The notes: generated from the sequence alone by a model not told the origin. A stretch of 64,000 nt of DNA from Candidatus Vogelbacteria bacterium RIFOXYD1_FULL_46_19 (GCA_001824825.1 MHTK01000002.1:70020-134019), one strand, 5' to 3'. Positions 6-32,007 are shown, numbered from the stretch's first letter. Program-made: numbers and translations.

Positions 6-395
6 TCATTTTGTTGATTGTTTAGGTTGATGGGGTTTTACTCTGGGAACTAATTTTGCCAATTTTTCCTCGGCTTTAACTGTCATCGAAGTGACCACCA
101 CCATCGCTGTCCAACCCGGTAAATTATTTAAATAGGGTATAAATTCCAGGACCGGCATCCCAAAAAAAGAAATCGTGCGCCATTTGTTACCTAAAAATTT
201 TACTCCTTTCATTGTAAACCATAACCAAAAGGTAAGCCAAGCAAAAGGCCACACAATATAGCCCGCTACCACGCCCCCGATCCCCCCAAGTGGTAAAGTC
301 ACAAAAGTAAAAAAAGCCGGAATGCCATCAAAAAACAAAGCGGTAGCTATCATAAAAAAATTATCTATAAAGTTTAGTTTCGGCTGATCAGACAT
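6..395 (-). CDS. small polytopic membrane protein, last gene of T4SS-like operon
   Basis: 129-aa ORF with three hydrophobic segments; its start overlaps the end of the VirB4-like ORF (388..2208) by 8 nt, consistent with translational coupling. Confidence 0.5.
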   Translation of the reverse strand: MSDQPKLNFIDNFFMIATALFFDGIPAFFTFVTLPLGGIGGVVAGYIVWPFAWLTFWLWFTMKGVKFLGNKWRTISFFGMPVLEFIPYLNNLPGWTAMVVVTSMTVKAEEKLAKLVPRVKPHQPKQSTK

Positions 396-2208
396 TACCG
401 GGCGAGGATTGCATTTTTAACTCATCTTTGGCTTTTTTGATAGAGAGTAGTTGGGATGGGTCGGAAGTAATAATCTGGTCTTCGGTATAAGAGGCAATAA
501 TTTTAATCGCCACCCGCTTCAGGCCGGCAAAAAAGATTCCTTCACCCACATTAGACTCCAACAGTAAGAATTTTTCTTCATCAGTTAGATTGAAAGTTTG
601 TTGGATTAGGTCGATTGAAGCTGGCGACTGTTTGAGGAGGAGTTGGAGGGAGGAGTTGGTGATAATTGGTGTTCCATAAGGGCTACGGAGGAAGTCCCCT
701 ACGTCTTGGGTGATAGTGGCGACACCCAAGTAGTATTTACGACCTCGCTTGACCAAGGAGAAGAGAAAAGAGGCAGTGTCCTCGGCCTTCATCATCCACC
801 AAGCCTCATCCACCACCATGAGGCGCTTTTTTAAATTACGGCGAATAGTGTTCCAAATGTGGTGCATCACAATGTACATAGCGACCGGCTTCAAATCGTC
901 TTCCATGTCTCGAACGGAAAAGACCACAAATTGTTTATTGATATCCACGTTGGTTGGCTTATTCAAAAAGCCCGACCAGGTGCCCTGGGTGTATTTAGCC
1001 AGACGCTGGGCCAGGGACTCCCCGCCTTCCATCCCCGCCAAAACTAATTCCAGGTCAGACAAAAGTGGGACCGGTTTGTTGGTAAAGTCGGTGCTGGGGG
1101 TAATATCTTTGAGGGCGTAAGTCTCGGAAATGGCATTGTCTATAATCGAGTCCTCTTCCGGGGTTAAGCCCCCAAGCATAATACGCATCAAGCCGACTAG
1201 GTTGATAATATTAGACCGCAAGACGTCGGCCGGAGCCTCGTCTTCTCGCGGAAAAGGTAGATCAAACGGGTTGATATGATGCTCTGATGACAAAGAAATA
1301 TTGAAATAGCGTCCGCCCACAGCTTCGGCTAAAAATTCATACTCTCGCTCCGGGTCGATGACAATAACGTCGATACCGTACATTAAGCTACGTAAGAGCT
1401 CTAACTTGGTGGCATAAGATTTGCCGGAACCAGACTTGGCAAAAGTGACCGAGTTGTAGTTTTCAAGGGAAAAGCGATCAAAGAGAACGAGGGACGAGTT
1501 GTGGCGGTTGACGCCGTAGAGGATCCCCTGATTGGAGGTGAGGTCGAAAGATACAAAAGGGAAAAGGCTAGATAAGGGCGAGGAGTTGAGTTTGGTGTGG
1601 ATAGATAAAACATCATCACCAAGAGGGGCTACACTCTGGAACCCTTCTTGTTGTTGAAAGAGGGCCGGTTTAATGTAAACCAGCTTGGCGTCTAAAATAG
1701 ACTTGATTTCGGACTCAGTCAGGTCCAACTCTTCTTTGTCAGCCCCGTAAATGGTGATATAGACGCCAATATCAAAAATTCTTTCCTGGGCTTGCTGAAG
1801 CTGGTCGCGCAGAGTTTCAATATCGGAGTAGGCTGTATCCAAAATAGGATCCCGGACAAAACCTCGTTCTTCCTTAATACTAATCTGACTTTCTACCTCG
1901 GCTAATTTTTTTTGTAAATCACGCAAGGCGGTCCCAGTATCGATAGGGTGGATAAAAATTGACACATCGAACACCTTATCTAGGTTGATGATCGGTGAAA
2001 ACCATTCTTCGGTTAAAAAACGTGGATAAGAGATAATAAAGAAGGTGCGGGCCATCTTGCTACCCAAGCTCACTTGATTGGGGGTGATACGTAGAGCCGA
2101 CGGCGCAATAATGTCACGGAGCTCCAGTACCCCCATATCGTAGATATCTTGGGGCATCACCGGGTTGATGTTTGGAGTATTTTTTTCTTTTTTATTAAGT
2201 GGCCACAT
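388..2208 (-). CDS. VirB4/TraE/PrgJ-like type IV secretion ATPase, core ATPase part (606 aa)
   Basis: Walker A KSGSGKS, Walker B MVVDEAWW (DEAW signature of VirB4 family), N-terminal YPRFLTEEWFSPII resembles conserved VirB4 linker; directly follows in same frame the N-domain ORF 2212..2856. Confidence 0.8.
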   Translation of the reverse strand: MWPLNKKEKNTPNINPVMPQDIYDMGVLELRDIIAPSALRITPNQVSLGSKMARTFFIISYPRFLTEEWFSPIINLDKVFDVSIFIHPIDTGTALRDLQKKLAEVESQISIKEERGFVRDPILDTAYSDIETLRDQLQQAQERIFDIGVYITIYGADKEELDLTESEIKSILDAKLVYIKPALFQQQEGFQSVAPLGDDVLSIHTKLNSSPLSSLFPFVSFDLTSNQGILYGVNRHNSSLVLFDRFSLENYNSVTFAKSGSGKSYATKLELLRSLMYGIDVIVIDPEREYEFLAEAVGGRYFNISLSSEHHINPFDLPFPREDEAPADVLRSNIINLVGLMRIMLGGLTPEEDSIIDNAISETYALKDITPSTDFTNKPVPLLSDLELVLAGMEGGESLAQRLAKYTQGTWSGFLNKPTNVDINKQFVVFSVRDMEDDLKPVAMYIVMHHIWNTIRRNLKKRLMVVDEAWWMMKAEDTASFLFSLVKRGRKYYLGVATITQDVGDFLRSPYGTPIITNSSLQLLLKQSPASIDLIQQTFNLTDEEKFLLLESNVGEGIFFAGLKRVAIKIIASYTEDQIITSDPSQLLSIKKAKDELKMQSSPGNV

Positions 2209-2211
2209 AAA

Positions 2212-2856
2212 TTAGGTTTTTACTGTTGGTACTCCTCGTTCGCCTGGGTTGAATATTTTAAAGTATAACTCAATCAATTCTTCTGTATTTAAACGAGCGG
2301 TTTTTACCCCTACTCGCCCCAGGCCGTCGGCTACCACTCCCAAGCGCTGTTCCAGTTGAACTTTATTATTTTGGAAATCTTCTTTGGTGGCGATTTTGGT
2401 GGTTTGTTGTTTGGATTTAGATAAGAAAGGTAGTTTAGACATTATAGTATCAGTGGTTTGAATAACTGATGGCTGATACGGGACGACAATAAAAAAGGTT
2501 TTTGTCATCACATTAGTAGCCTCGGTGAAAGTCTTGATAAAGTTCATATACTCGCGGGACTGAATTTTAATCAGTTCATTAACATGCTCCTTGGTGACCG
2601 CTTCTAAACTTGCTAAATAGGGCTGAATATCAAGCTTTTTTGACTGCAGATGAATTTGAATGGAAAAATCAAGCGAGTTTAAAAAATTTTGATACTGCAT
2701 AATAACCGCTTCTCGTTCGTCGGTGGACTTGAGAGCAAAGTTGATCGATGAGCCGATTAGTACTCCGCGATAGCTACCATCTTTTAAAATGACAATCCCG
2801 TCGCGAATTTCACGTAGGGCGACAAAATCTTGCGTTGGCTTTGCTTTAATGGCCAT
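2212..2856 (-). CDS. VirB4-family N-terminal domain encoded as separate 214-aa ORF (split gene or pseudogenised N-part)
   Basis: Sequence IRDGIVILKDGSYRGVLIGSSINFALKSTDEREAVIMQYQNFLNSLDFSIQI matches the characteristic N-terminus of Gram-positive VirB4 (TcpF/PrgJ/TraE type); ends at TAA 2212-2214, 3 nt before and in frame with ATG of 388..2208. Confidence 0.6.
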   Translation of the reverse strand: MAIKAKPTQDFVALREIRDGIVILKDGSYRGVLIGSSINFALKSTDEREAVIMQYQNFLNSLDFSIQIHLQSKKLDIQPYLASLEAVTKEHVNELIKIQSREYMNFIKTFTEATNVMTKTFFIVVPYQPSVIQTTDTIMSKLPFLSKSKQQTTKIATKEDFQNNKVQLEQRLGVVADGLGRVGVKTARLNTEELIELYFKIFNPGERGVPTVKT

Positions 2857-2858
2857 AG

Positions 2859-3257
2859 CTAATTGATATGTTCTTTAACATCTAAACTCCAAGACAACTG
2901 GTCTAACCGGCTCTCTGATATTTTTGGTAAGTCGATAGCGGCTTGGGCAACGACGGGTTTGGAGCGGGGTTGAGCGGTGGAACCTTTTTGCCAGATGTAT
3001 AGTTTGCTACCGAGGTAATATTTGAGCATTGACTGAATCACGTAAATTAACGAGCGGTTATTGAGTTTGTAGAAAGCGAGACCCAAGCCGCCGGCGATAG
3101 CTATGGCCATCGGCACCAAGGCGATATAAAGCGGTAACAAGACATAAAGTAAAAAGGCTACCGCCAGTCCCCCGACCACGAAAATAAACTGCGGAAATGA
3201 CAAGGGGCCAAAAATTTTATTTTCGACTTCGATAAATTGTGGCACTTGGAAGTTCAT
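2859..3257 (-). CDS. PrgI/VirB3-like two-transmembrane T4SS protein
   Basis: 132 aa, two adjacent TM helices, positioned immediately upstream of VirB4 as in Gram-positive T4SS loci. Confidence 0.55.
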   Translation of the reverse strand: MNFQVPQFIEVENKIFGPLSFPQFIFVVGGLAVAFLLYVLLPLYIALVPMAIAIAGGLGLAFYKLNNRSLIYVIQSMLKYYLGSKLYIWQKGSTAQPRSKPVVAQAAIDLPKISESRLDQLSWSLDVKEHIN

Positions 3258-3488
3258 TCTATATATTTTGCTCGGTTGGAGTCATTTAGTCTGACGGTTT
3301 AAAACTTTAGGTATTAAATTAAGGACTTAAGTCTCCCTATTATTTCCATCTTTTATTTTTACCCTACTGGTTCACTAATTATACTACAGATCGTTCTTTA
3401 GTGGTGAATAGGTTGTTGAAAATAGTTAGGTTTTAGAAAATAAGGGTGAGGAAAAAGGCTGCCATCATCCCTGCCGTATGATTACTCT

Positions 3489-3961: not shown

Positions 3962-6562
3962 TTAGTTATAGGTTGTTTTTGGACCAAATCTATCAGGTTT
4001 TTGATAGTCACCCGCTCCAGCCGGGGTTACCACTTCTGGGGTTTTAGGGGCAGCTGGCTTAGGTGTAGCTCGGGTGGCTAGATACTCTTTTGTCTCACTA
4101 TTTCCGTGCGAGTCAATTGCTTTTTCAAGTTGACGCCAGTTATTAGCGCTCATGTTTCCACTTTTCTCTATTTGCTCCAAGTCTTTTGGAGTCACTTCTT
4201 TAACTATTTTTTCATTAGCGAGGATTTCGGGCTTGATAGCCGCTCGGTTCTTGTAGGTTAGTTTACCCATTTCCTCAATGATGGTCGTGGCGGTCTGGTC
4301 GTCTAGTGACTGTAAGTCGGTGGCGTGGTTGTTGATGGCTTCTATAGCAGTGGCCGTGTCGTCTTTAGCCGCTTGCTCCATTAAATCTTTTTGAGCCTTT
4401 TTGATTTTATGGTCTTTGTCGCCAGCTTGGCCTTTACGTAGGGCGCTTATAGCTTGTTTTAGACTCTCGTTTGGTCCCTTGTTAGCTTCGGTTTCAAATA
4501 TGGCTTTATCGGTGTCGGAGAGGGCTTCGTAAGCCAGTTTCTGGTAGTCTGCACTTAAGGCGGCAAAGTTCTTTAATTGTTCTTCATTGTTGGCCTCTTT
4601 TGTTACCGGCTTGCCATCTTTATCTTTTACTACGTTACCCTCGGCATCCTTAACTACCGTCTGTCTCAGTTCTTCCCGCAAGCGCTTGCCGAACTCCTCA
4701 TCAGCTTTTTCTCTCCTTTCTGGATCTTTAATTCCATTGCGCAGGGCTTTCATGTTTTCAGCTAGGGCTGGATTATCTTTAACGTTTTTGATTTCCAGAT
4801 CAGCTTTTTCTCGGTCACTTAGCTTCTCGTAATTCTTCTTGCGGTCTTCTTCATTTAGGTTACTCAAATATTCCGCTTTAAGTTTAGGATTACGCAATTG
4901 CCCTGCTATTTCTTCTTGGCGCTTTTGTCGTCTGTCTACGGTTTGAGTGTAGCCCCGGTCGGTACCGAAGCCATATCCAGCCACACCCGCCATTGCTTTA
5001 TTGGCTGCCCAGCCTATCTTTGGAGTTTTAGCTGTTAATTTTTTCATTCCATCTGAATTCTGAGCCTTCTTAGCAAGTATACCAATAGTGTTGCGTCCAG
5101 CTACACCAACAGCTCCTACAGTAGCGCCCCGTGCTGCCCACTTGGACAAACCAATTGCTTTGTTTGAAAAAGAGCTTCCTAGTTGACAGCCAACTTTCTG
5201 GGCAATTAACATTGAACCTAGCATTAAGCCGTTTAAGGTTAAAAAGGTAAAAATTTGTCCGGTCGGACCACTGGTGGTAATAGAATTAGAAGCTGCAGTA
5301 TTTAAATTTTTCATTATACCCAGTGTCACATACAAAAAAAACATAAATAGTGGGGCAAATAGCAGGTCACAGCGTAATCTGGTTGACCATAGGTTAAAAA
5401 CTTCTTTCAAGGGCGTGAAAGTATAGCCCAAAAAAGCTAAAGGTGAGGTCATGATTAAAAATAGGAGCGATACTCCTCGAATTAAAAACAAAAGAGAGGC
5501 TGCTAGAAGGGTAAATATGGTTATGGTTTGTAATATTAAAATCCCAATGTTTTTTACAAGTACCCCAGCAGTTAGCTTGAAATAGCCACTATTGTAGTCA
5601 TTGGGAGATTTAATTCCTTCAAAAAATGATAATTGATCTCTGAATGGTTGAGCGATACTTGGATCTTTATTGGGGTCATCTCCAATTTGTTGGTAAAAAG
5701 TCATGGCCACAATATTGGAGGCATCAATGGCAACTTTGGTTATAAAACCACTGAAATTAACCAGTAAGGCTATGACTATCACATTGACCAAGGTTTTTTT
5801 GGTGTTGACATTTGGTAGTTGTAAGATGGTTCCAATGGCAAGGTAAAGTAATATAAAAATAAAGAAAATGTTAGACAAGTCTCTGGCAACCGTCCATCCA
5901 ATATCAATTACCGACAAGTCTGTTACGTAATCCCTGAAGTCGGTGATAGTGGTTTTAACTATGTAAGCAAAAAGGGTATCAGCTAAACTAATTACCCAAG
6001 TGTAAAGCCACAGTAAAATACTAGATATGCCGTCTAAAATCCCTGCAAGACAGCCGTCCCAATTTGGATTAGTGCTGATAAGGTTGCAGTTGTAAACTTG
6101 CTGATCTCGTATGTTTTGAACTCTTTCACTGTAGGTGTTACTACTGGTTGTGCTGTCTTGAAGACGTTCCTCTCTAAGAGCAATTTGTTCTCTTAGTCTT
6201 TCAGCTTCCTGGGTGTTGTTATTATCTTCCGCAATTTGGGCGAGCGCATTATCTCTCTGAATAGTTAATCTTTGGATTTCTCTTCCTATTTCACCTATAG
6301 CCAAAATGTTGTCTTCTGCATCTCTATCCCCATCAATTCCAAGCCAATTTGTAAAAAAATCACTCCACCTTGTGGTTCCCCAGTCAGCCTGGCTTGCTGC
6401 TAATTCATCATATTGATTTTGTAGATTTGCTATATCTTCCTCAATTATTCTTACGAATTCCTCTTGGGATATTGGAGTTTGGGCATTTATTAATAGGGGT
6501 GATAGTAAAGTACATATCACTAAAGTAGAAATAATAATTTTTTTTAAGAATGAGATTCTCAT
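3962..6562 (-). CDS. VirB6/TrbL/TcpH-like polytopic membrane protein with long charged C-terminal tail
   Basis: 866 aa; N-terminal signal/TM, block of ~7-8 TM helices in aa ~180-470, then ~400-aa K/E/D-rich low-complexity tail; start overlaps upstream ORF by 4 nt. Confidence 0.65.
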   Translation of the reverse strand: MRISFLKKIIISTLVICTLLSPLLINAQTPISQEEFVRIIEEDIANLQNQYDELAASQADWGTTRWSDFFTNWLGIDGDRDAEDNILAIGEIGREIQRLTIQRDNALAQIAEDNNNTQEAERLREQIALREERLQDSTTSSNTYSERVQNIRDQQVYNCNLISTNPNWDGCLAGILDGISSILLWLYTWVISLADTLFAYIVKTTITDFRDYVTDLSVIDIGWTVARDLSNIFFIFILLYLAIGTILQLPNVNTKKTLVNVIVIALLVNFSGFITKVAIDASNIVAMTFYQQIGDDPNKDPSIAQPFRDQLSFFEGIKSPNDYNSGYFKLTAGVLVKNIGILILQTITIFTLLAASLLFLIRGVSLLFLIMTSPLAFLGYTFTPLKEVFNLWSTRLRCDLLFAPLFMFFLYVTLGIMKNLNTAASNSITTSGPTGQIFTFLTLNGLMLGSMLIAQKVGCQLGSSFSNKAIGLSKWAARGATVGAVGVAGRNTIGILAKKAQNSDGMKKLTAKTPKIGWAANKAMAGVAGYGFGTDRGYTQTVDRRQKRQEEIAGQLRNPKLKAEYLSNLNEEDRKKNYEKLSDREKADLEIKNVKDNPALAENMKALRNGIKDPERREKADEEFGKRLREELRQTVVKDAEGNVVKDKDGKPVTKEANNEEQLKNFAALSADYQKLAYEALSDTDKAIFETEANKGPNESLKQAISALRKGQAGDKDHKIKKAQKDLMEQAAKDDTATAIEAINNHATDLQSLDDQTATTIIEEMGKLTYKNRAAIKPEILANEKIVKEVTPKDLEQIEKSGNMSANNWRQLEKAIDSHGNSETKEYLATRATPKPAAPKTPEVVTPAGAGDYQKPDRFGPKTTYN

Positions 6563-9500
6563 CTTGCTAGGGTGATTGATTTAGTGATGTTCCCACCAGG
6601 GCTGGTGCATTCTAGCGAATAGTTGGGAGACAGGCTCGCGTCTATTGCTAAGCCATTTAAAGCAAAATAATAAGAACTAAAAACTGGATAAGCCGGATTG
6701 GTTGACGAGTTTCTGGCTAAGTTTATTTTTTCTAGTAATTTTTGACCTAGTTGGGATTGGGTTAGATTTTCAGTTACGGTAAATTCAACTAAATTAGTGG
6801 ACCCTACGTAAGGCCAAAAGGATACGGTGTATTTATCTCCAATTTGGATATCAGCCGGTAGCGGTAGTTTGTTAAGAGTAGATGTTTTAGAAGAGTTAAC
6901 CGAAGTGGCTATTTCTATGGAGTTATCAACATTGTTTCGAGTACGAATGAAACGCGGTTTGAAATTTAGGGGCAAAGATATGGTTCTTTCACTCTCACTA
7001 GGTACAACTGACCCTTTGGCATAGATTAAAGTGGGAGCGTCTGTACTATTTCCAGAAAACCAGTTGTTGGTCGCTCGACAGTTTGTGGCGCCAGGTATAG
7101 ACCAAGCTAGTTGGGCGGTGTTTGGTTGCCCGGCATTAACTTGAGAAAGTGGCAAAAGACTGTAATCAAAACTAGGTTCGGTGACAGGATTGTCGCTTTC
7201 TCCACTTCCTCCACCACCAAATAAGCTACCCAAGAGGTTTAAGATTTGGCCAATATCAAAGGAACCGGGGCCGGAACCCCCACCACCTTGGTCTGATGGG
7301 GTGTGCGTCCTAACTTCCTCTAAAGTTGGCCCACCACCAGGTGAAACATCGCCCGGCTCAGCTTCTTTATACAAATCTAAGCGGTAATTAAGGATGTCGG
7401 CAGCAGTTTCTTTGACTTGAATAGCCGGGGTAATAGTCTTCCACCGGCGACAAGCTTGACCGTCTTCGGTAAACTCTTCACACTCGCGGACTGGTAGATA
7501 GCCTTGGGCGGCTACTATTTGATTAATAGCGTCATTTTCTGCATCTGCTTGTCGTTGGACCAAGATTCGTTGATTGATTTTATAAGATGTTTCGGGACTG
7601 TTTGGAATAAAAGGATTTCTAATATTTTGATATAGTTTGGTCCACTCTTCACTGTCTGTTACTTCGCCCGTCACAAATCGTTGATAGTCTTCCAAAGAAA
7701 CTGTTGAAGTATCTGGTTTGATTGGGAGTTCTTTTAAAATTAAACTCTTGGAGACAACTTTGAATGAATCTTCAGATTTATCTAGATCATCCAAAAACAC
7801 ATTGGTTGCTTCAGGAATTACCAACTCATCCAAATGTGTCCTCAGGTTTTCCACATAAAGCGGCGCGTCTGGGCCTTGGCCGGTCGAGTCGTAACCTTTT
7901 TTGGTGTAGTCGATAAGCTCGGTTCGGTATTGTTCGGACTCTTCGTTGGCTTGTCGCCTTAGATCGACATCTTCGATAAATTCTTTTTGTTCGAAGGCGG
8001 TTTGGATGCGTTGAATCGATTTTAAGTAAGTACACATTTCGACGGTCAACTCTTCGATTTTTTTGGTGGTCTTGTCAATTTCACCGGCATAATTGTCGAT
8101 ACTGACGGTGGTCCTCATTAGTTTACCCTCTACCTCTTGAACGGGTACGTACACTCCTAAGCCCGGGATCGGTAAGTTTAGACCGCCTAATATTGGAACG
8201 TTGCCGAGTAAACCCCCAGCTACATTACCCACCGCTCCTTGCACCACGTTTCCTACTGCTCCGGTGATGCCAGTAGCCCCCAGTACATTGCTGGCAAACC
8301 CATCTAGGGCGCCACTAAAGCTATCGGTAATACCTCCCAAGACGCCACCAAAGGCGTCGGTGATCGGGCTGGTGATGTTGCCGATTAGGTTGCTGGTCAT
8401 ATCGGTAATTGGCGACAGGACCGAATCGGTAATACTGTCTAACATTCCGGTGACTGGGCTCATGATGCCGTCCATTAAACCACTTAGCTGATCAGTGATG
8501 GGAGAAATCAGGCCGTCGGTGATACCACTTAAGGCATCATCAAATACACCGGTGAATTGGCCAATAGTGTCGCCAATCACATCATCAAACACGCCAGTTA
8601 GTTCACCAAAAGTTTGGTCGATCACTGAGTCAAATTCGCCTAGTACTCCGTCTAAGACTCCGTCTAACATAGAGTCAAATTCGCCCGTTAAATCGTCTAA
8701 AATACCGCTGAGTTGTTGATCAATAACACCGGTAAATTGGCCCATCGTTTGATTAATAACATCATCTAAACTGCCGAGGGACTGGTCTAAAATTGAATCT
8801 AAGTTACCGGTGACCGAGTCTAAGACACCGTTTGTGATTTGATCGATAGATGCGTTAAGTCCGTCTAGAGCGGTGCCGGTGAATTCGTTTAACATTTCAT
8901 CGGTCAGGCGGTCGATCATGTCACTCGTTACCCCCGCTTCCCCGCTAAGTTCGTCGATTAGACCATCTTGAATCAGGGCACCTAATTCGGCCTCCATAAT
9001 TTGGGGTAGTTGTTCGGCTAGGGCTCCCGGTAACTGAGTGGTGAGGATTTCTTGCATCGCCGCCGGCAGGCCACTTCGGACGCTGTTTTGTAGAGCGTCG
9101 GGTAGTCCCGCTTCAATACTGCCCGTCATCGCTTGGCCAAAGTTGTCTTGAATCGAGCTGGTCATCAAGTCGGACATTATTTGTGACAAATCTTCTCGGA
9201 GGAGGGGTTCGATCCCTCCGTTGGTGGCGGCGTTGATGGCCTCGGGTAAGCGGTCTTGTAAGTCGGCTCGGACTAGATTGCCAAGTTCTTCGGGTAAATG
9301 TTCACGGACTTGGGTGTTTAGTTCAGCCGGTAGGCGGGTGGCAATTTCCTCTTGCAACTCAGCTGGCAAATTATCTTGCAGGACGTCGGAGGTGGCTTGG
9401 TTTAGAGCTTGGTTCATGGCTTGCCCGGCGGGGCTAGCGGCTCCCATTCCCCCTATACCACTTTCTTCCAGACATTTCTTTAAGTCTTCTTTTTGTTGTT

Positions 9501-9768
9501 GCTCTAATTTTTGTGCCTCCTCTTTAGATGCTTCCACATTAGCCTCGGCCCTTGGGTCATTTCCCCCACTATTGTTTATTTCTCGAGTAGAACTGAAGTT
9601 AAACCCACCCATACTGTGAGTAGAGGTGACACCGTTGGGGGTAGTAAATCCACCCTGAGCTTTTAAGCGAGGTAAGCCGATCATAAAAACAAAGATCACT
9701 AGGATTAATCCGATGGCGGCCAAAGTGATAGTTGTTTTAAGAGAAAAACGGTTCATAAATCTAATCAA
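6559..9768 (-). CDS. large secreted/surface protein with hendecad (11-residue) tandem repeats and Cys-containing C-terminal domain
   Basis: 1069 aa; N-terminal TM/signal; LPxxLxxxI-type repeats aa ~130-260, then about 200 aa of FxxVxDxxxGx 11-mer repeats, glycine linker GGGGSGPGS, non-repetitive C-terminus; overlaps VirB6-like gene by 4 nt. Confidence 0.7.
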   Translation of the reverse strand: MIRFMNRFSLKTTITLAAIGLILVIFVFMIGLPRLKAQGGFTTPNGVTSTHSMGGFNFSSTREINNSGGNDPRAEANVEASKEEAQKLEQQQKEDLKKCLEESGIGGMGAASPAGQAMNQALNQATSDVLQDNLPAELQEEIATRLPAELNTQVREHLPEELGNLVRADLQDRLPEAINAATNGGIEPLLREDLSQIMSDLMTSSIQDNFGQAMTGSIEAGLPDALQNSVRSGLPAAMQEILTTQLPGALAEQLPQIMEAELGALIQDGLIDELSGEAGVTSDMIDRLTDEMLNEFTGTALDGLNASIDQITNGVLDSVTGNLDSILDQSLGSLDDVINQTMGQFTGVIDQQLSGILDDLTGEFDSMLDGVLDGVLGEFDSVIDQTFGELTGVFDDVIGDTIGQFTGVFDDALSGITDGLISPITDQLSGLMDGIMSPVTGMLDSITDSVLSPITDMTSNLIGNITSPITDAFGGVLGGITDSFSGALDGFASNVLGATGITGAVGNVVQGAVGNVAGGLLGNVPILGGLNLPIPGLGVYVPVQEVEGKLMRTTVSIDNYAGEIDKTTKKIEELTVEMCTYLKSIQRIQTAFEQKEFIEDVDLRRQANEESEQYRTELIDYTKKGYDSTGQGPDAPLYVENLRTHLDELVIPEATNVFLDDLDKSEDSFKVVSKSLILKELPIKPDTSTVSLEDYQRFVTGEVTDSEEWTKLYQNIRNPFIPNSPETSYKINQRILVQRQADAENDAINQIVAAQGYLPVRECEEFTEDGQACRRWKTITPAIQVKETAADILNYRLDLYKEAEPGDVSPGGGPTLEEVRTHTPSDQGGGGSGPGSFDIGQILNLLGSLFGGGGSGESDNPVTEPSFDYSLLPLSQVNAGQPNTAQLAWSIPGATNCRATNNWFSGNSTDAPTLIYAKGSVVPSESERTISLPLNFKPRFIRTRNNVDNSIEIATSVNSSKTSTLNKLPLPADIQIGDKYTVSFWPYVGSTNLVEFTVTENLTQSQLGQKLLEKINLARNSSTNPAYPVFSSYYFALNGLAIDASLSPNYSLECTSPGGNITKSITLAR
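8270..8900 (-). repeat. degenerate 33-nt periodic coding repeats (hendecad peptide repeats)
   Basis: Recurring motifs such as atcatcaaa[ct]acaccggtgaattggcc and gagtcaaattcgcc at ~33-nt spacing inside ORF 6559..9768. Confidence 0.6.
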
Positions 9769-10456
9769 GATTGAAATAAAGGTTTAAGCTGGCTTCTTTG
9801 GGAAAAATAAGGTTGTGGTTGGCAAAGTAAACGTTAATATTTTCGGTGGCCCAAAAAAAGCTGGAGGCCCTTTTCAAATATTCTTGACCACTTTCTAAGC
9901 CGAGGGTCGGATTATTAAAAATATTGGCCATATTTTCTAAAAGTGGGATAACTTGACTGAGGCTGTTGACCAAGCGTACATGAACTAGCTGGGCATCTTT
10001 AGGAACTGACAGTTTGAGAAGTTCTGTTAGGGCTAATTTGTGCATATTGATCGTTTTTTGAATGGGGGCGAGTTGACTCTGGTTTTGATTGTTGAGCGCG
10101 GCCACCATTACCTCCGCTTCGTTAGGGCGGACAGTTTCGTAAGGCTTGAGAATTCTAAAAATATCGGTGGCGTATTGCCTGATGGTGGCCTCACTCACCT
10201 CCTCGTTTATCTTTAAGTTGCCAACTTGGTAGCGAGTGTAGCTCTTGTCGGAAGCGGTAGCTGTGAGACCTTTTTGGTTTAAGCGAGACGCGACGATGTT
10301 TTCCAGGTCTCGTTCTTTATCGAGCAGGGACTGGTAGTAGGTCAGGTCAGCCTCTTCTTTTTCCGACTCTTGTTGCAAGCCGAGCCAACGTAAAACGCCC
10401 AAAACAGCAACTAGGACTAAAACAATCAGTAAGATTACTGCCAGCTTTTTCTTCAT
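9761..10456 (-). CDS. N-terminally membrane-anchored protein, first gene of T4SS-like operon
   Basis: 231 aa; MKKKLAVILLIVLVLVAVLGVL anchor; overlaps downstream ORF by 8 nt. Confidence 0.55.
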   Translation of the reverse strand: MKKKLAVILLIVLVLVAVLGVLRWLGLQQESEKEEADLTYYQSLLDKERDLENIVASRLNQKGLTATASDKSYTRYQVGNLKINEEVSEATIRQYATDIFRILKPYETVRPNEAEVMVAALNNQNQSQLAPIQKTINMHKLALTELLKLSVPKDAQLVHVRLVNSLSQVIPLLENMANIFNNPTLGLESGQEYLKRASSFFWATENINVYFANHNLIFPKEASLNLYFNLD

Positions 10457-10563: not shown

Positions 10564-11430
10564 ATGGTGATGAAATTTTATTTGACCACTTTTTTTATAG
10601 CTGCCTTTTTACTGTTGGCATTATTACCAGTACCGCTAGAAGCTGCCCTAAACCGAAATTTATCTTTGGGGTCAAGTGGGTCCGACGTGTGGGAGCTGCA
10701 AAAGTTGCTTAATCGGGATCTGGCGACCATTATTGCCGGGAGTGGCCCGGGGTCCAGTGGTCTGGAAACCGTTTTTTTTGGCCCCCTAACCCAGTTGGCG
10801 GTGAGTCGCTTCCAAGAAAAATATGCCCCCGAAGTCTTGCACCCCCTTGGTTTAAGCCGTGGTACTGGCTATGTGGGGCAATTAACTCGCCAAAAACTAA
10901 ATAGCTTATTAGGGGCGGGAGCTGGGGCTACTTTAGCGATACCCTCAGCGTCGATGCCAGTTTATATCCCTCCCTTACCCCCTCCCATCCCCACGAGTGA
11001 GCTTGGGAGTGATGAAAAAAGTCCGACAAAACCAAGTAGTACGACCAAAAAATCAACAACGGCTAGTGAAATCGACCTATTAAACCAAACCGCTCAGTCT
11101 TTAGCTGGACTGACGGCGCCGGAGCGCTCAAAATTTATGTCTGTAGTGTCTATTTCACCCACTAGTGGTGGTCCAGGGACCACGGTAACCATTAAAGGTC
11201 ATGGTTTTTCCGAGAATAGTAATAAAGTTTATTTAGGTTATGATATCAAAGATAAGGTGCGCTCTACTAAGGACGGCACGGAAATTAAAGTTAAGATTGA
11301 AAACCCCTTTACCGATGGTGATTATAAAACTAGGGCGTCGGGTCAAGGGAGTCTAGAGATTCCCTTGGGTATTATGGTGGAAAATAATACCGGAATAAGT
11401 AATCACTTTATTTTTACCTTAAAATTTTAG
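10564..11430 (+). CDS. secreted protein with peptidoglycan-binding (PG_binding_1-like) domain and IPT/TIG-like C-terminal domain
   Basis: Signal peptide; LSLGSSGSDVWELQKLLNRDL and FGPLTQLAVSRFQ motifs typical of PG-binding domain; SISPTSGGPGTTVTIKGHGF resembles IPT/TIG fold. Confidence 0.6.
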   Translation: MVMKFYLTTFFIAAFLLLALLPVPLEAALNRNLSLGSSGSDVWELQKLLNRDLATIIAGSGPGSSGLETVFFGPLTQLAVSRFQEKYAPEVLHPLGLSRGTGYVGQLTRQKLNSLLGAGAGATLAIPSASMPVYIPPLPPPIPTSELGSDEKSPTKPSSTTKKSTTASEIDLLNQTAQSLAGLTAPERSKFMSVVSISPTSGGPGTTVTIKGHGFSENSNKVYLGYDIKDKVRSTKDGTEIKVKIENPFTDGDYKTRASGQGSLEIPLGIMVENNTGISNHFIFTLKF

Positions 11431-11439
11431 ATCTTTACT

Positions 11440-11805
11440 ATGTGGCGAAACTTTTTTATTAACAAAATTATTATCATTCCGCTAGTACTGGTTATTTTTG
11501 CCCTGTCGATTCCGTTTAAAGCCGAAGCTGGCCCAGGCTTACCCTTTGGGGGTCAAATTCTCTCAGTTATTCCCTGCTTGTGTAGTGCCAATCTTTTGAT
11601 AACCATGAGGCCTATTGGCCCCTTGTCGCCCCCTCAGGTTATATTTGGGCCCTCCAGTATATTATTTCCTTTCTATCAATTGTGGCGCCCCGGGGCTTAT
11701 CTTCTAGGTAACTATGGTCCACCGGTGCCCTGTGTGGTGTTTGCAATAATTTGTGTCCCCATTTCTGTGGCCCCACTTATATTGATGACCGGAACCTCGA
11801 TGTAG
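11440..11805 (+). CDS. hypothetical small hydrophobic protein
   Basis: 121-aa ORF, hydrophobic, Cys/Pro-rich; no homology recognised. Confidence 0.3.
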   Translation: MWRNFFINKIIIIPLVLVIFALSIPFKAEAGPGLPFGGQILSVIPCLCSANLLITMRPIGPLSPPQVIFGPSSILFPFYQLWRPGAYLLGNYGPPVPCVVFAIICVPISVAPLILMTGTSM

Positions 11806-28859: not shown

Positions 28860-30395
28860 TTAAAGATCTTGATTATTTCCGTAGTTAACATTAACTAAGC
28901 CGGGTGAGATTTTCCCATTTATAATATCTAGGACTTTTTCAGTCACCGCTTTAGGTGGGGTGGATAGTTTTTTCAGTTCTTGGCCGTAGGTATTGATGTA
29001 AGCATCTCCGAGGGTAGAAGGGCTGATCAACGGGGTGTTGAGGTAGTAAGCTTCAAATATGTCTTGGTAGTGTCTGTTTATCTCGCTTACTAGTGAAAGC
29101 AGGGCTGAGTTGCTAACACTGTAGTTTATTAAGTGTTTGTGTTTGGCGGTTGGTTTGCCGGCTAGCCAAATTAATTTAATTTTGTGGGTCGGGCGGTTTT
29201 TAAGTAGAGCATTTAGTAATAATAAACTGCCACTAAGTTTGGTCGATATTAAATCTTTAATACCGTTTACGGTTAAATTTTCCAGATCTCCTTTACCGTT
29301 GCCGGGGTCCGCTGAAAAGATTATTACATGGGTATCCGAGGTCTCTTTTAAAAGTGTTTTTACTGAACTTGCGGAATTAATATTACACACTCTTTCATGC
29401 CAAAGTTTTTTACTGACTATTTTGGCTGATCTACTATAAAGCCATACGTCCCACCCTGCATTTTTTAGCTGGTTACCAATAGTTCTCCCTAAAGAATATT
29501 TTTTGGTTCCAGCTACTAATACTTTTGGGGTGTATCCTTTATGGGCGGTTATAAATGCCCAACCAATTTTTTTGCTTTTAACTGCACTTACTATACTTAA
29601 GTACCGGTTTTTTAGATCCCGCTCTGCTCGGCTTGGGTTGGCTACAATTTCATCCATTTGGTGAGCAAGTTTTTTGTAGGTATTTACCATATCTTCATTT
29701 TTTTGTTCAATTTTTATGTTTGAAAAAGATAGTCGTTTTAAGATTCTTTTGTAGGTAGCTGAAGATAACCCGTTGTCCCAATTAACCAGTTCTTTTATAA
29801 GTTGGGCTTCATTATTGTTTAAACTTTTGGTGGTCTCGTTTGATAAAAAGTCGGCTATAACCATAACTCCACCCGGGGCCATTAGTTCATACAAATTAGA
29901 AAATAGTTTTGATTTATTGGGTATCAAAAAAATTGCGTCTTGGCTAATAATGTGAGTAATAGTATTTTTTTGTTTAGCGAGTTTTTTGTCTATGTTGGAG
30001 GCTCTACTTCTGATAAAGCTTATATCTAGAATTCCAGCTGTTAAATTTGACGGTTTACTGTTAATTAATTTTATTTTTTTGTTGGCTTCTTTAATCATCT
30101 CATCACTAATATCTACTCCAATACCTTTGCAGTGATATTTTAAACAAATATCAATTAATGTTTGACCAGTGCCACAACCAATATCTAAAACGACAGAGCG
30201 CGAGTCTAGTGTTCTGGATGTGTTAACTTTGTTTATTAAGTGTTCTGTTGCGTTTAAGAATGACTTACTTAATGAATCATTTTTCGACGAAAACAAACCA
30301 ACGTGCAGGGTGTGATGTTTGGGATCCCACGTTTTGTCGTAATGTTTTTTTAGGGAGTTAAATTTTTTTCTAGTTTTTTCCTCGGTGGTTATCAT
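28860..30395 (-). CDS. fusion protein: class I SAM-dependent methyltransferase (CFA-synthase-like) + Rossmann NAD(P)-binding domain
   Basis: N-term HYDKTWDP...VLDIGCGTGQTLIDI motif I; C-term KVLVAGTKKYSLGRTIGNQL dinucleotide-binding-like; AT-rich codon usage distinct from flanks. Confidence 0.65.
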   Translation of the reverse strand: MITTEEKTRKKFNSLKKHYDKTWDPKHHTLHVGLFSSKNDSLSKSFLNATEHLINKVNTSRTLDSRSVVLDIGCGTGQTLIDICLKYHCKGIGVDISDEMIKEANKKIKLINSKPSNLTAGILDISFIRSRASNIDKKLAKQKNTITHIISQDAIFLIPNKSKLFSNLYELMAPGGVMVIADFLSNETTKSLNNNEAQLIKELVNWDNGLSSATYKRILKRLSFSNIKIEQKNEDMVNTYKKLAHQMDEIVANPSRAERDLKNRYLSIVSAVKSKKIGWAFITAHKGYTPKVLVAGTKKYSLGRTIGNQLKNAGWDVWLYSRSAKIVSKKLWHERVCNINSASSVKTLLKETSDTHVIIFSADPGNGKGDLENLTVNGIKDLISTKLSGSLLLLNALLKNRPTHKIKLIWLAGKPTAKHKHLINYSVSNSALLSLVSEINRHYQDIFEAYYLNTPLISPSTLGDAYINTYGQELKKLSTPPKAVTEKVLDIINGKISPGLVNVNYGNNQDL

Positions 30396-30407
30396 AATAG
30401 TCTAAAA

Positions 30408-31877
30408 TTAGATGTTATTTTTAAGTAGGTAGTCGACCATATTTCCTAATAATTTATAGGTTTTTACTCTAATTGATTCTTGGGTTTTCCACCCCGCTCT
30501 GTAAGTTAAGATGTGATTACTTAATTCGTGGCTAATTTTCCAATCAGTTTTATCTCTTATTGGTAAACCAAGTATATCTTTTCGTGGTAAACCTGGATAA
30601 ACGTCTAGAAAGGCTAATATATTGTTATTTATCATTTGGCTGGTCAGGGCTTGTTGATCAATAGCGTTTCCGTCTGCTGTATTTATAACAATTACTCCAG
30701 GTTTCATTTTTAGAATAAGTTTCTCGTTTAATGTGTTTTCAGCGTGGTGTGCCGGAAGATTGATTGAAATAATGTCCGCAATCTCAGACATTTTTTCAAG
30801 GGTTGAATACTTTATGCCAAGAGTCTTCTCCAGGTCGACTTTTCTTGTTTTAGAATAATAAATGACCTTAAAACCCATTCCGGTGGCTATTTTCGCCACT
30901 AAAAATCCAATTCTTCCCAACCCTACTATTCCGAACGTTTTACCGTTGAATGAATAAGTACTGGAAACAAGATTGCTAACATCTACGAGTTTATCTCCAA
31001 AGAGTATTTGAGATTTATTAAGATCAAATAAGTTAATATTTTTTGCCTCATAAAATATTATTTCGTTATCGGTTAAAAACTTAAAGTAACTCGCCAGTGT
31101 AGATTCGGTAAGTTGATATTGCTCGCAAATAACTCCAAGGGCCGTTAATCTTTCTATGGTAACGTTTAAGCCTTGCATATTAAGGAATCCAACTTTCCTA
31201 TTTTGGAGGAGTTTTTCTGGAATTAGGTCTTCCATATTTCTTTCGCTGAAGTCGAATTTTACTTGTCCTATTTTGTGAAAATGATGGACAAATTTACCGC
31301 GCCTAGTATTTTTTTCGTTACTTGAAAGTTTTCGGAAAAATCCAAATAAGTGATTAATAATAGTGTGCGATACCTCTTCTTGGTTTTTGGTCGAAGTGAA
31401 AGTGGTGGGGAAGTTTCTGGTGATTAATGAGAACAAACCAGCAAATACCACTTCTGAAACTGACTCCGTACCGTAGTCCGGGATATTAGTCACTTCTATA
31501 CCTAGTTTTTTAGCTAAAAGGGTGTTGATTCGATGCTCCTTTTCGTGGGTCCAAAAGATAACTAGTTTTAATTGGGGGTTCAATTTTAATATTTCATCCG
31601 GTATGTTGGTCCAACAACTAATAATAACGTCTGCACCCTCGACCCTACTCATTAGTAATTGAAGAGGAATGTTGTCGGTGGCAATTTCGGTGTAACACTT
31701 TTTACCTGTAAATACCCCCGGGTTATTCTCGTAGTCTTTTTCTAGACTTGCTGGGAGACTGGAGGGGTATTCTATTACCTCACGCGAAATACTGTTCAGA
31801 AGTTTTCGATGCTCGGGATAAAAGATTACCGTGTCTAGAATTACCACTTTATTAAATTTTTTGGCTAGGTTGATCAT
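30408..31877 (-). CDS. D-isomer-specific 2-hydroxyacid dehydrogenase family protein with ~150-aa insertion between catalytic and NAD-binding domains
   Basis: N-terminal catalytic-domain pattern (ADVIISCW...LKLVIFWT...GIEVTNIPDY...SVSEVVF) and NAD-binding GIVGLGRIGFLVAK separated by unmatched segment. Confidence 0.65.
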   Translation of the reverse strand: MINLAKKFNKVVILDTVIFYPEHRKLLNSISREVIEYPSSLPASLEKDYENNPGVFTGKKCYTEIATDNIPLQLLMSRVEGADVIISCWTNIPDEILKLNPQLKLVIFWTHEKEHRINTLLAKKLGIEVTNIPDYGTESVSEVVFAGLFSLITRNFPTTFTSTKNQEEVSHTIINHLFGFFRKLSSNEKNTRRGKFVHHFHKIGQVKFDFSERNMEDLIPEKLLQNRKVGFLNMQGLNVTIERLTALGVICEQYQLTESTLASYFKFLTDNEIIFYEAKNINLFDLNKSQILFGDKLVDVSNLVSSTYSFNGKTFGIVGLGRIGFLVAKIATGMGFKVIYYSKTRKVDLEKTLGIKYSTLEKMSEIADIISINLPAHHAENTLNEKLILKMKPGVIVINTADGNAIDQQALTSQMINNNILAFLDVYPGLPRKDILGLPIRDKTDWKISHELSNHILTYRAGWKTQESIRVKTYKLLGNMVDYLLKNNI

Positions 31878-32007
31878 AGGATATATATAACATAAACATA
31901 CACTATAGTCAAGTAAATAGTCTTAAGATTGTTGTAAATTATAAAAGATGTATAATATTTATATACACTTTTGATTAAAATAAGCTAGATATATCTATAT
32001 TTTTCGT

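Follow-up and report, generated by a model that had tools for sequence, protein, structure and literature searches.

A stalk-and-head protein family encoded in the type IV secretion loci of Patescibacteria

We identified a widespread family of putative fibrous, stalk-plus-head accessory proteins of a type IV secretion system (T4SS) in the ultra-small Patescibacteria, starting from a gene in a 64,000-nt window of Candidatus Vogelbacteria RIFOXYD1_FULL_46_19 (the window being the whole stretch of DNA that was analysed). The protein joins an unusual stalk, built of pentadecad (15-residue) and 12-residue repeats, to a novel head. By synteny, the family is a component of the MPF-FATA-like T4SS cluster of Patescibacteria, and none of the databases searched holds an annotation for it. 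Our leading, though still tentative, interpretation is that the protein is a Sec-exported extracellular subunit of the T4SS, in which a rod would hold the novel head away from the cell.

Being syntenic, fast-evolving, probably secreted and present in all ten loci sampled, the family offers a specific candidate for the T4SS component that makes contact with the host. In the accessible portions of the published accounts, the Patescibacteria T4SS appears not to be used for conjugation and is essential for epibiotic growth in the one patescibacterium tested (PMC10633639), as described for Southlakia (PMC10633639; PMC12857230). The available text of the Patescibacteria T4SS literature, including a 2025 survey, makes no mention of the stalk-protein family (PMC12102498, PMC10633639, PMC12857230).

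The gene and its stalk repeats

The open reading frame (ORF) at 6559..9768 on the minus strand is uninterrupted over 1069 codons from a TTG and contains no N or other ambiguous base. A sequence-only reading of the window had given a 1069-aa protein. The frame is open over that length, but translation more likely begins with the ATG at 9756, 4 nt past the upstream stop codon TAG, which yields 1065 aa; the NCBI protein at this locus, a "hypothetical protein", begins at the same ATG and is identical over 1065 aa. All residue numbers below refer to the 1065-aa form. At the other end, the stop codon overlaps the start of a downstream 866-aa VirB6-like gene, so that the translational coupling given in the earlier reading holds, as do its coordinates; the same 4-nt stop/start overlap is called in a second locus (L015). 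The features of the gene, from its 5' to its 3' end, are as follows.

9658..9756, minus strand: probable Sec signal peptide, aa 1-33, MNRFSLKTTITLAAIGLILVIFVFMIGLPRLKA followed by QGG, with presumed cleavage between the two
9373..9657, minus strand: N-terminal mature segment, aa 34-128; a G/S/N-rich spacer, then a predicted charged helix (~aa 73-97) ending at Cys95
8971..9372, minus strand: stalk module 1, aa 129-262; proline-punctuated 12-mers LPxxLxxxIxxx, hydrophobic period 3.98, net charge -15
8197..8970, minus strand: stalk module 2, aa 263-520; ~17 pentadecad repeats, hydrophobic period 3.75, net charge -40
8122..8196, minus strand: Gly/Pro junction, aa 521-545; in the alignments a family-conserved VPVxExGxL motif (VPVQEVEGKL, aa 537-546) opens the core
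7282..8121, minus strand: conserved helical head domain, aa 546-825; a 66-residue helix with Cys575, further helices and a beta-hairpin
7174..7281, minus strand: second glycine-rich linker, aa 826-861; a short conserved amphipathic helix, FDIGQILNLLGSLF, between two poly-Gly runs
6562..7173, minus strand: C-terminal beta-rich domain, aa 862-1065; invariant Cys893 and near-invariant Cys1050
6559..6562, minus strand: ATGA overlap, read at the junction; the stop codon (6559-6561) overlaps the ATG of the VirB6-like gene (6560-6562)

Repeats were assessed by BLOSUM self-similarity at each lag, compared with shuffles, and by the Fourier power of hydrophobicity, compared with 200 shuffles. The central module is a pentadecad (15/4) and belongs by its periodicity to the right-handed coiled-coil class. 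Self-similarity over aa 260-520 was highest at lag 15 (z=12.7), followed by lag 11 (z=9.5) and lag 4 (z=7.8); the lag-11 signal follows from 15 = 11 + 4. Over aa 263-520, Fourier power reached 391 at a period of 3.75, against 23.5 at 3.67, 7.5 at 3.5 and a shuffle maximum of 84.7. The hydrophobic peak lies at 3.74-3.76, with consensus hydrophobic positions 1, 4, (5), 8, (11), 12 and 15, and rows of 15 residues align in register (FDSVIDQTFGELTGV / FDDVIGDTIGQFTGV / FDDALSGITDGLISP / ITDQLSGLMDGIMSP). Prolines recur every 15 residues in part of the module (419/434/449/464). Its 258 aa comprise 16% G and 13% D, with E at seven positions, one R and no K. The protein had been described as built of hendecads (11-mers), a label that these values replace, whereas the broader proposal of a non-heptad helical periodicity of the right-handed class is borne out by the 3.75 measured in the centre. 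The central repeats had been put at ~200 aa; they lie far above chance, but span ~260 aa (263-520).

Module 1 follows a different rule. Across aa 130-260, self-similarity peaked at lag 12 (z=10), with other peaks at multiples of 4, and the Fourier spectrum of aa 129-262 peaked at 3.98 (power 241; shuffle maximum 154). Prolines recur every 12 residues (131, 143, 155 and again 219, 231, 243), and the module contains six R and no K. The LPxxLxxxI repeats of 11-12 residues noticed earlier in the N-terminal region are therefore present at aa 129-262, but with a unit of 12 and a period of 4.0, not 11. According to Hartmann et al. 2016 (PMC4786415), a 15/4 period twists to the right as strongly as heptads do to the left, and the same work places the extreme natural case at 19/5 (3.8) and the upper limit at ~3.9, so that 4.0 falls beyond the accessible range. 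Module 1 is thus not a continuous coiled coil, and its regularly placed prolines suggest a chain of short helices of ~10 residues. Both stalk periodicities are kept in homologues. A single-sequence AlphaFold2 (AF2) model of the full protein had a predicted local distance difference test (pLDDT) score of 37.5, with helices at aa 279-382 and 398-491 at pLDDT <50.

Within the repeat-coding region we also noted an antisense ORF of 132 aa (9221..9619, plus strand), rich in Ser, Ala and Cys, which is most likely explained by the composition of the other strand.

Probable export, cysteines and the conserved head

The N-terminus consists of MNRFSLK with its basic residues, a hydrophobic region (h-region) of ~20 aa and LKA followed by QGG, and contains a single hydrophobic segment, at aa 10-28. 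Throughout the family, the h-region is immediately followed by a conserved Ala-Gln motif, and the N-terminus fits a signal-peptidase I site, so that the protein is probably exported. The earlier suggestion of a secreted protein is thereby made probable by the N-terminal and hydrophobic regions with their conserved A-Q motif, by six conserved cysteines and by thrombospondin-type-3 (TSP3)-like DxDxDG calcium-binding repeats that occupy the second linker in some members; the latter point to an extracellular location. The C-terminus (...ITKSITLAR) carries no sorting motif of the LPXTG type, the pattern LP.[TSA]G being absent from the protein.

Six cysteines are common to nearly all full-length members (C95, C575, C759, C769, C893 and C1050) and likely form three disulfide pairs. 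In the AF2 model, C759 and C769 lie on the two strands of a predicted beta-hairpin, while C893 and C1050 lie inside the C-terminal domain. With these four accounted for, C95-C575 would be the likely third pair. The first cysteine is conserved in long and short members, and the charged helix that precedes it is predicted at low confidence. If Cys95 and Cys575 were bonded, the ends of the stalk would be pinned together, giving a loop or hairpin of ~29 nm and not a 59-nm rod. Three members (P0056, P0059 and P0065) carry extra length N-terminal to the first cysteine, which indicates that such a loop is not obligatory for the family.

The C-terminal half folds with good model confidence. AF2 on aa 525-1065 (45-sequence alignment) gave a mean pLDDT of 82.4; blocks of ten residues in the helical domain were mostly at 70-94, falling to <50 at model residues 153-156, and the beta-rich C-terminal domain was mostly above 90. 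The beta-hairpin holds the invariant Cys759 and Cys769 within the motif RECxxxTxDGxxCxxWxTxTP, and the modelled C-terminal domain looks like a beta-sandwich. In the second linker, the helix FDIGQILNLLGSLF is modelled at low confidence (H312-322) and recurs in several homologues, its place being taken in other members by the TSP3-like repeats. The proposal that a glycine linker is followed by a Cys-containing globular C-terminus agrees with these results, which place Gly-rich linkers next to a folded, Cys-bearing C-terminal part.

As far as our searches reach, the head is a new domain family. It had no Pfam match, either in the protein itself or in any of the 25 alignment members, no NCBIfam match, no sequence or profile match in the PDB and no convincing fold match by structure comparison. 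A tblastn search of the core against 72,556 plasmids returned no match, indicating that sequenced conjugative plasmids do not carry the core in recognisable form. Two candidate assignments were rejected. A Pfam match of the stalk protein to DUF445 was sub-threshold (E 0.002, below the cut-off), and a lytic transglycosylase assignment of the helical domain, considered for its near-invariant Glu, had neither profile nor fold support.

Family variation and the secretion locus

An exhaustive phmmer search against 1.84 billion cluster representatives returned 230 matches at E<1e-3, of which 97 passed E<1e-10 and 45 passed E<1e-30; a good number were full-length. The family comprises about 90-100 cluster representatives, and all named members come from Patescibacteria or Paceibacteria metagenome-assembled genomes. 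The weakest matches cover the repeat region only and belong to unrelated long amphipathic-repeat proteins with Baculo_PEP_C, DUF7217 or ApoLp-III Pfam hits. Word-indexed searches recovered far less: the full protein returned only itself, the core segment only a chimeric JGI protein, and the alignment 11 proteins. The chimeric protein (P0002, on a JGI contig of 4468 nt) has 376 aa and begins with a LexA-type DNA-binding domain (PF01726), to which the final ~280 aa of the stalk protein are joined; that portion matches window 6562..7400 (minus strand) at 100% identity, and the fusion is most likely an assembly chimera in the metagenome.

Members fall into two length classes. Long forms (1000-1350 aa) can be aligned along most of the sequence, and the two-module periodicity (~4.0, then ~3.75) recurs in them. 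Short forms of ~620-700 aa align only with aa ~530-1065, which in these proteins comes right after their own signal peptide and a brief N-terminal stretch. The distance from the first to the second cysteine is bimodal, at most 100 residues in 34 proteins and at least 300 in 36, with one in between; the stalk is therefore an all-or-none insertion between these two cysteines. Six members (P0057, P0034, P0028, P0010, P0035 and P0055) have stalk periods of 3.33 (10/3) or ~3.5, or of 4.0 only with 12/24-residue repeats. The stalks of the family thus sample both extremes of the coiled-coil range, plus one value beyond it (PMC4786415). They form a natural series (10/3, 7/2, 15/4 and 12/3) on one conserved head, and 4.0 lies outside the range that coiled-coil theory allows.

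We sampled ten distinct loci, through protein look-ups and one genome scan. The gene order was the same in 10/10: LysM-peptidase M23, VirD4-like, small ORF, UvrD, KsgA, small hydrophobic ORF, peptidoglycan (PG)-binding protein, bitopic protein of ~230 aa, stalk-protein family, polytopic VirB6-like protein, ~160-aa protein, PrgI/VirB3, TrsD (TraC-like) and VirB4. The window has this order as well. Only the flanks vary: some loci lack VirD4 or LysM-M23 or have it truncated at the end, and locus L014 has a phage-lysozyme gene where the PG-binding gene would be. The order holds for the stalk-less P0152 and for the distant members P0035 (E 2e-40) and P0096 (E 3e-11). Past VirB4, where the contig continues, there are further genes including one with a T4SS_pilin hit, and related loci carry VirB2-like pilins. 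The sequence-only reading, which saw an unrecognised repeat protein in a T4SS-like operon, is confirmed on that point by the presence of PrgI/VirB3, TrsD, VirB4, a VirD4-like gene and a LysM-M23 peptidase. According to the available part of the 2025 survey, Patescibacteria T4SS are MPF-FATA-like, with TrsD, PrgI, VirB6 and VirB2-like pilins, and usually lack a relaxase (PMC12102498).

Identity to the window proteins was 75-85% for VirB4, 51-68% for TrsD, 27-39% for the stalk protein, 26-38% for the VirB6-like protein and 25-46% for the bitopic protein. Such a gradient is expected if the stalk, VirB6-like and bitopic proteins are exposed parts of the machine.

The resemblance to tape-measure proteins and the possible role of the rod

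The stalk matched 21 PHROG families, 15 of which are tape-measure or tail families (best E 1.2e-10). A tblastn search against 50,697 phage records matched 52 of them; the listed matches, at 23-27% identity over 70-90% of the stalk, fall 20/20 in tape-measure genes, mostly of Gram-positive siphophages (by the record's own annotation or that of a duplicate record, most being labelled directly). Three random shuffles of the stalk gave no PHROG hits, while three shuffles that preserved the 15 columns gave 4-6 hits each, nearly all to tape-measure or tail families (E 2e-6 to 6e-5). Periodic pattern and composition therefore account for the greater part of the signal, and what remains may reflect local sequence correlation. 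The resemblance is one of pattern, with homology not demonstrated.

In the tape-measure proteins of Lactococcus 936-group (Skunavirus), Enterococcus and Staphylococcus phiETA siphophages, as in the stalk, non-heptad amphipathic repeats are rich in G/S/T/A with spaced F/I/V/L, and an extended rod is presumed that lengthens in proportion to its residue count. In the phage regions that were matched, the repeats are genuine hendecads (period 3.64-3.67, lags 11/22/33) with regularly spaced W/F, whereas the stalk has a period of 3.75 and a lag of 15 and is highly acidic. The stalk protein also differs in its putative Sec signal and in its chromosomal T4SS operon, where the tail chaperone and Dit/Tal genes that flank tape-measure genes are missing.

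The most economical reading of these data is an exported structural subunit of the T4SS, which fits the coupling to the VirB6-like gene, the fixed position, the fast divergence and the vacant adhesin or distal role; we lean towards it without placing it above even. On this reading, the conserved and presumably functional part would be the C-terminal ~540 aa, present in every family member, and a rod of ~390 aa, inserted in this lineage, would separate the N-terminal helix (Cys95) from the core (Cys575). For the acidic, small-residue-rich 15/4 segment, a right-handed multi-helix bundle is the most likely structure. The stalk's similarity to tape-measure proteins speaks for an extended helical rod, which would probably act as a spacer of fixed length, ~59 nm when extended or ~29 nm if Cys95-Cys575 pin it as a hairpin or loop. 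The head would thereby be able to operate outside the cell wall or S-layer, either where the bacterium meets its host cell or at the far end of the T4SS conduit. Translational coupling with the VirB6-like channel protein suggests that the two are assembled jointly.

Several observations weigh against this subunit reading. The long h-region (~20 aa) could make the N-terminus an uncleaved membrane anchor. Stalk helicity is deduced from periodicity and from a model of low confidence, and the period of 4.0 in module 1 excludes a continuous coiled coil there. The E/K salt-bridge pattern common in coiled-coil fibres is missing, as the stalk surface lacks K/R and module 2 is poor in E (7/258). For the head, no match to a known fold of an adhesin, a lectin or a T4SS protein was obtained. 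Stalk-less orthologues sit at the same locus, so that the rod would be dispensable for the core function. Finally, gene overlaps are common in compact genomes, and the overlap with the VirB6-like gene is by itself no proof of partnership.

An alternative that we regard as unlikely, yet worth serious attention, is that the acidic rod is a ruler or plug, threading the T4SS channel or the lumen of a VirB2-like pilus, where it would set length, act as a gate or be expelled into the host envelope, with the head as a distal cap. The tape-measure and tail PHROG matches, which random shuffling abolished, and the consistent tblastn matches to tape-measure genes favour this possibility. So do a G/S/T/D-rich composition with almost no positive charge, suited to sliding in a narrow lumen, and the all-or-none stalk with its minimum of ~300 aa. 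VirB2-like pilin genes lie just past VirB4 in related loci, and the gene is coupled to a VirB6-like gene; in Gram-negative systems VirB6 is a platform for pilus assembly. Against a ruler or plug, shuffles that keep only the pattern still match tape-measure families, the phage regions are hendecads unlike the 15/4 stalk, orthologues without a stalk occupy the same locus, and a Cys95-Cys575 pair, if formed, would make a closed loop and not a free thread. We know of no ruler protein in any T4SS. In its more specific form, in which the acidic pentadecad bundle occupies or templates the conduit or VirB2-like pilus and bears a novel disulfide-bonded cap at its end, we give the idea a slightly slimmer chance. 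If it were true, the rod would set the reach of the machine to the host or be driven into the host envelope in the manner of phage tape-measure proteins, and it would represent the first ruler or plug component described for any T4SS, by convergence with, or exchange from, phage tails.

We think it improbable that the protein is a free-standing surface adhesin or envelope fibre that is merely co-regulated with the T4SS, comparable to PrgA/PrgB/PrgC upstream of the pCF10 channel genes. Its putative signal peptide, predicted long helical stalk and globular distal domain, with a C-terminal part modelled as beta-sandwich-like, would suit such a role, as would its fast divergence (27-39% identity where VirB4 keeps 75-85%). 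The enterococcal pCF10 proteins, which belong to an MPF-FATA system, likewise have a signal peptide and are encoded upstream of the channel genes, and PrgA has a coiled-coil stalk that carries a globular domain. The accessible portion of the 2025 survey reports that neither PrgB homologues nor any other adhesin was detected in the T4SS of Patescibacteria, which would leave this role vacant (PMC12102498). Nevertheless, the stalk protein has no LPXTG or other recognisable anchor, gave no hit to an adhesin, polymer-adhesin or CAP domain, and its head fold is unrelated to those of PrgA/PrgB/PrgC. It is also held between the bitopic and VirB6-like genes in every locus, with start/stop overlaps, and this fixed position argues for a machine subunit over an accessory adhesin. 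The suggestion in the sequence-only reading of a surface fibre, adhesin or pilus-associated component is, in general terms, plausible.

Two further systems bear comparison with the exported-subunit reading. YadA-type trimeric autotransporter adhesins (15/4 and 19/5 repeats) share the 15/4 periodicity and hence a predicted right-handed supercoil, and act as a spacer with a distal binding head (PMC4786415), as is proposed for the stalk protein. The stalk protein, by contrast, comes from a monoderm and lacks the beta-barrel anchor and the head and neck motifs of these adhesins; its pentadecad surface consists of D/G/S/T only, and its additional module with a period of 4.0 lies beyond their range. 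VirB5/TraC, the pilus-tip subunit of Gram-negative T4SS, is secreted and largely helical, as is predicted for the stalk protein; both are encoded immediately upstream of virB6 or its VirB6-like counterpart, and Patescibacteria systems carry VirB2-like pilins. The stalk protein is five times larger than VirB5/TraC, however, and had no VirB5 hit in Pfam or NCBIfam and no VirB5-like fold match.

A lipid-binding protein of apolipoprotein type that shuttles host lipids is very unlikely. Patescibacteria, as far as is known, cannot make their own lipids. The stalk has proline-punctuated amphipathic repeats of the kind that marks exchangeable apolipoproteins, and the proteins matched in the repeat region only carry ApoLp-III, Apolipoprotein A1/A4/E and Baculo_PEP_C Pfam hits. 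The stalk protein itself, however, has no such hit. Positive interfacial residues are few (no K and one R in module 2, no K and six R in module 1, with net charges of -40 and -15), the period is 3.75-4.0 and not the 3.67 typical of membrane-bound 11-mers, and hydrophobic residues fill 40-47% of repeat positions, a proportion that better fits a buried bundle core.

A mis-assembly, a collapsed repeat (which the earlier reading had itself named as grounds for doubt) or a spurious ORF is effectively refuted: the LexA chimera places the C-terminal 280 aa in another assembly as a fusion, but the ORF holds no N bases, no DNA-level tandem repeat was found in the repeat-coding region, which makes a collapsed repeat unlikely, an identical 1065-aa protein stands in NCBI, and dozens of homologues from independent assemblies share the same architecture, domain order and synteny.

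Neighbouring genes and further observations in the window

The genes beside the stalk-protein gene, in the order of transcription, include the following.

9761..10456, minus strand: bitopic upstream gene, 231 aa, with a transmembrane segment at aa 4-22 and a TATAAT-like box upstream
3962..6562, minus strand: VirB6/TrbL-like gene, 866 aa, polytopic, with an N-terminal signal/coiled-coil and a long K/E-rich C-terminal tail
2859..3257, minus strand: PrgI/VirB3-like, by Pfam/NCBIfam
2212..2856, minus strand: TrsD/VirB4-N-like, 214-aa product
388..2208, minus strand: VirB4 ATPase, 606 aa, by Pfam/NCBIfam
6..395, minus strand: membrane protein of 129 aa, remainder of the T4SS operon

The name "VirB6-like" for the 866-aa gene, already used in the sequence-only reading, is reasonable but indirect, by transitive homology. 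The gene has no direct Pfam hit, but its orthologue in locus L015 (28% identity, E 6e-55) has a weak PF04610 TrbL hit. Nine partly overlapping hydropathy windows correspond to about six distinct hydrophobic segments, and TrwI was matched faintly in the PDB (E 0.88). The product also has a K/E-rich low-complexity extension of ~370 aa (aa ~500-866) and an N-terminal coiled-coil-like segment before the membrane domain, and is of an "extended VirB6" type.

The bitopic gene is the first of the apparent operon and always precedes the stalk-protein family. A bitopic gene of the same size is called in 10/10 loci, 8/10 of which are recovered by tblastn with the window's protein (g231); the 231-aa protein has no Pfam or NCBIfam family match. 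Divergent from the operon are two genes on the plus strand, encoding a secreted protein with PG_binding_1 and TIG domains (10564..11430) and a hydrophobic, Cys-containing protein of 121 aa without a family match (11440..11805). This pair is kept beside the T4SS operon in most loci examined.

The N-terminal region of VirB4 is split off as the TrsD-like gene, directly upstream of the 606-aa VirB4. The TrsD-like product, 214 aa long, matches VirB4/TrbE models over their first ~200 positions, in agreement with the TrsD finding in the accessible text of the 2025 survey (PMC12102498). The otherwise tight operon contains a 230-nt gap (3258..3488) between a 154-aa gene and prgI, where related loci have 5-200 nt. 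Elsewhere in the window, G+C content falls to 0.343 at 30001..32000, compared with ~0.45 in the remainder, and this dip overlaps a 489-aa ORF (30408..31877, minus strand).

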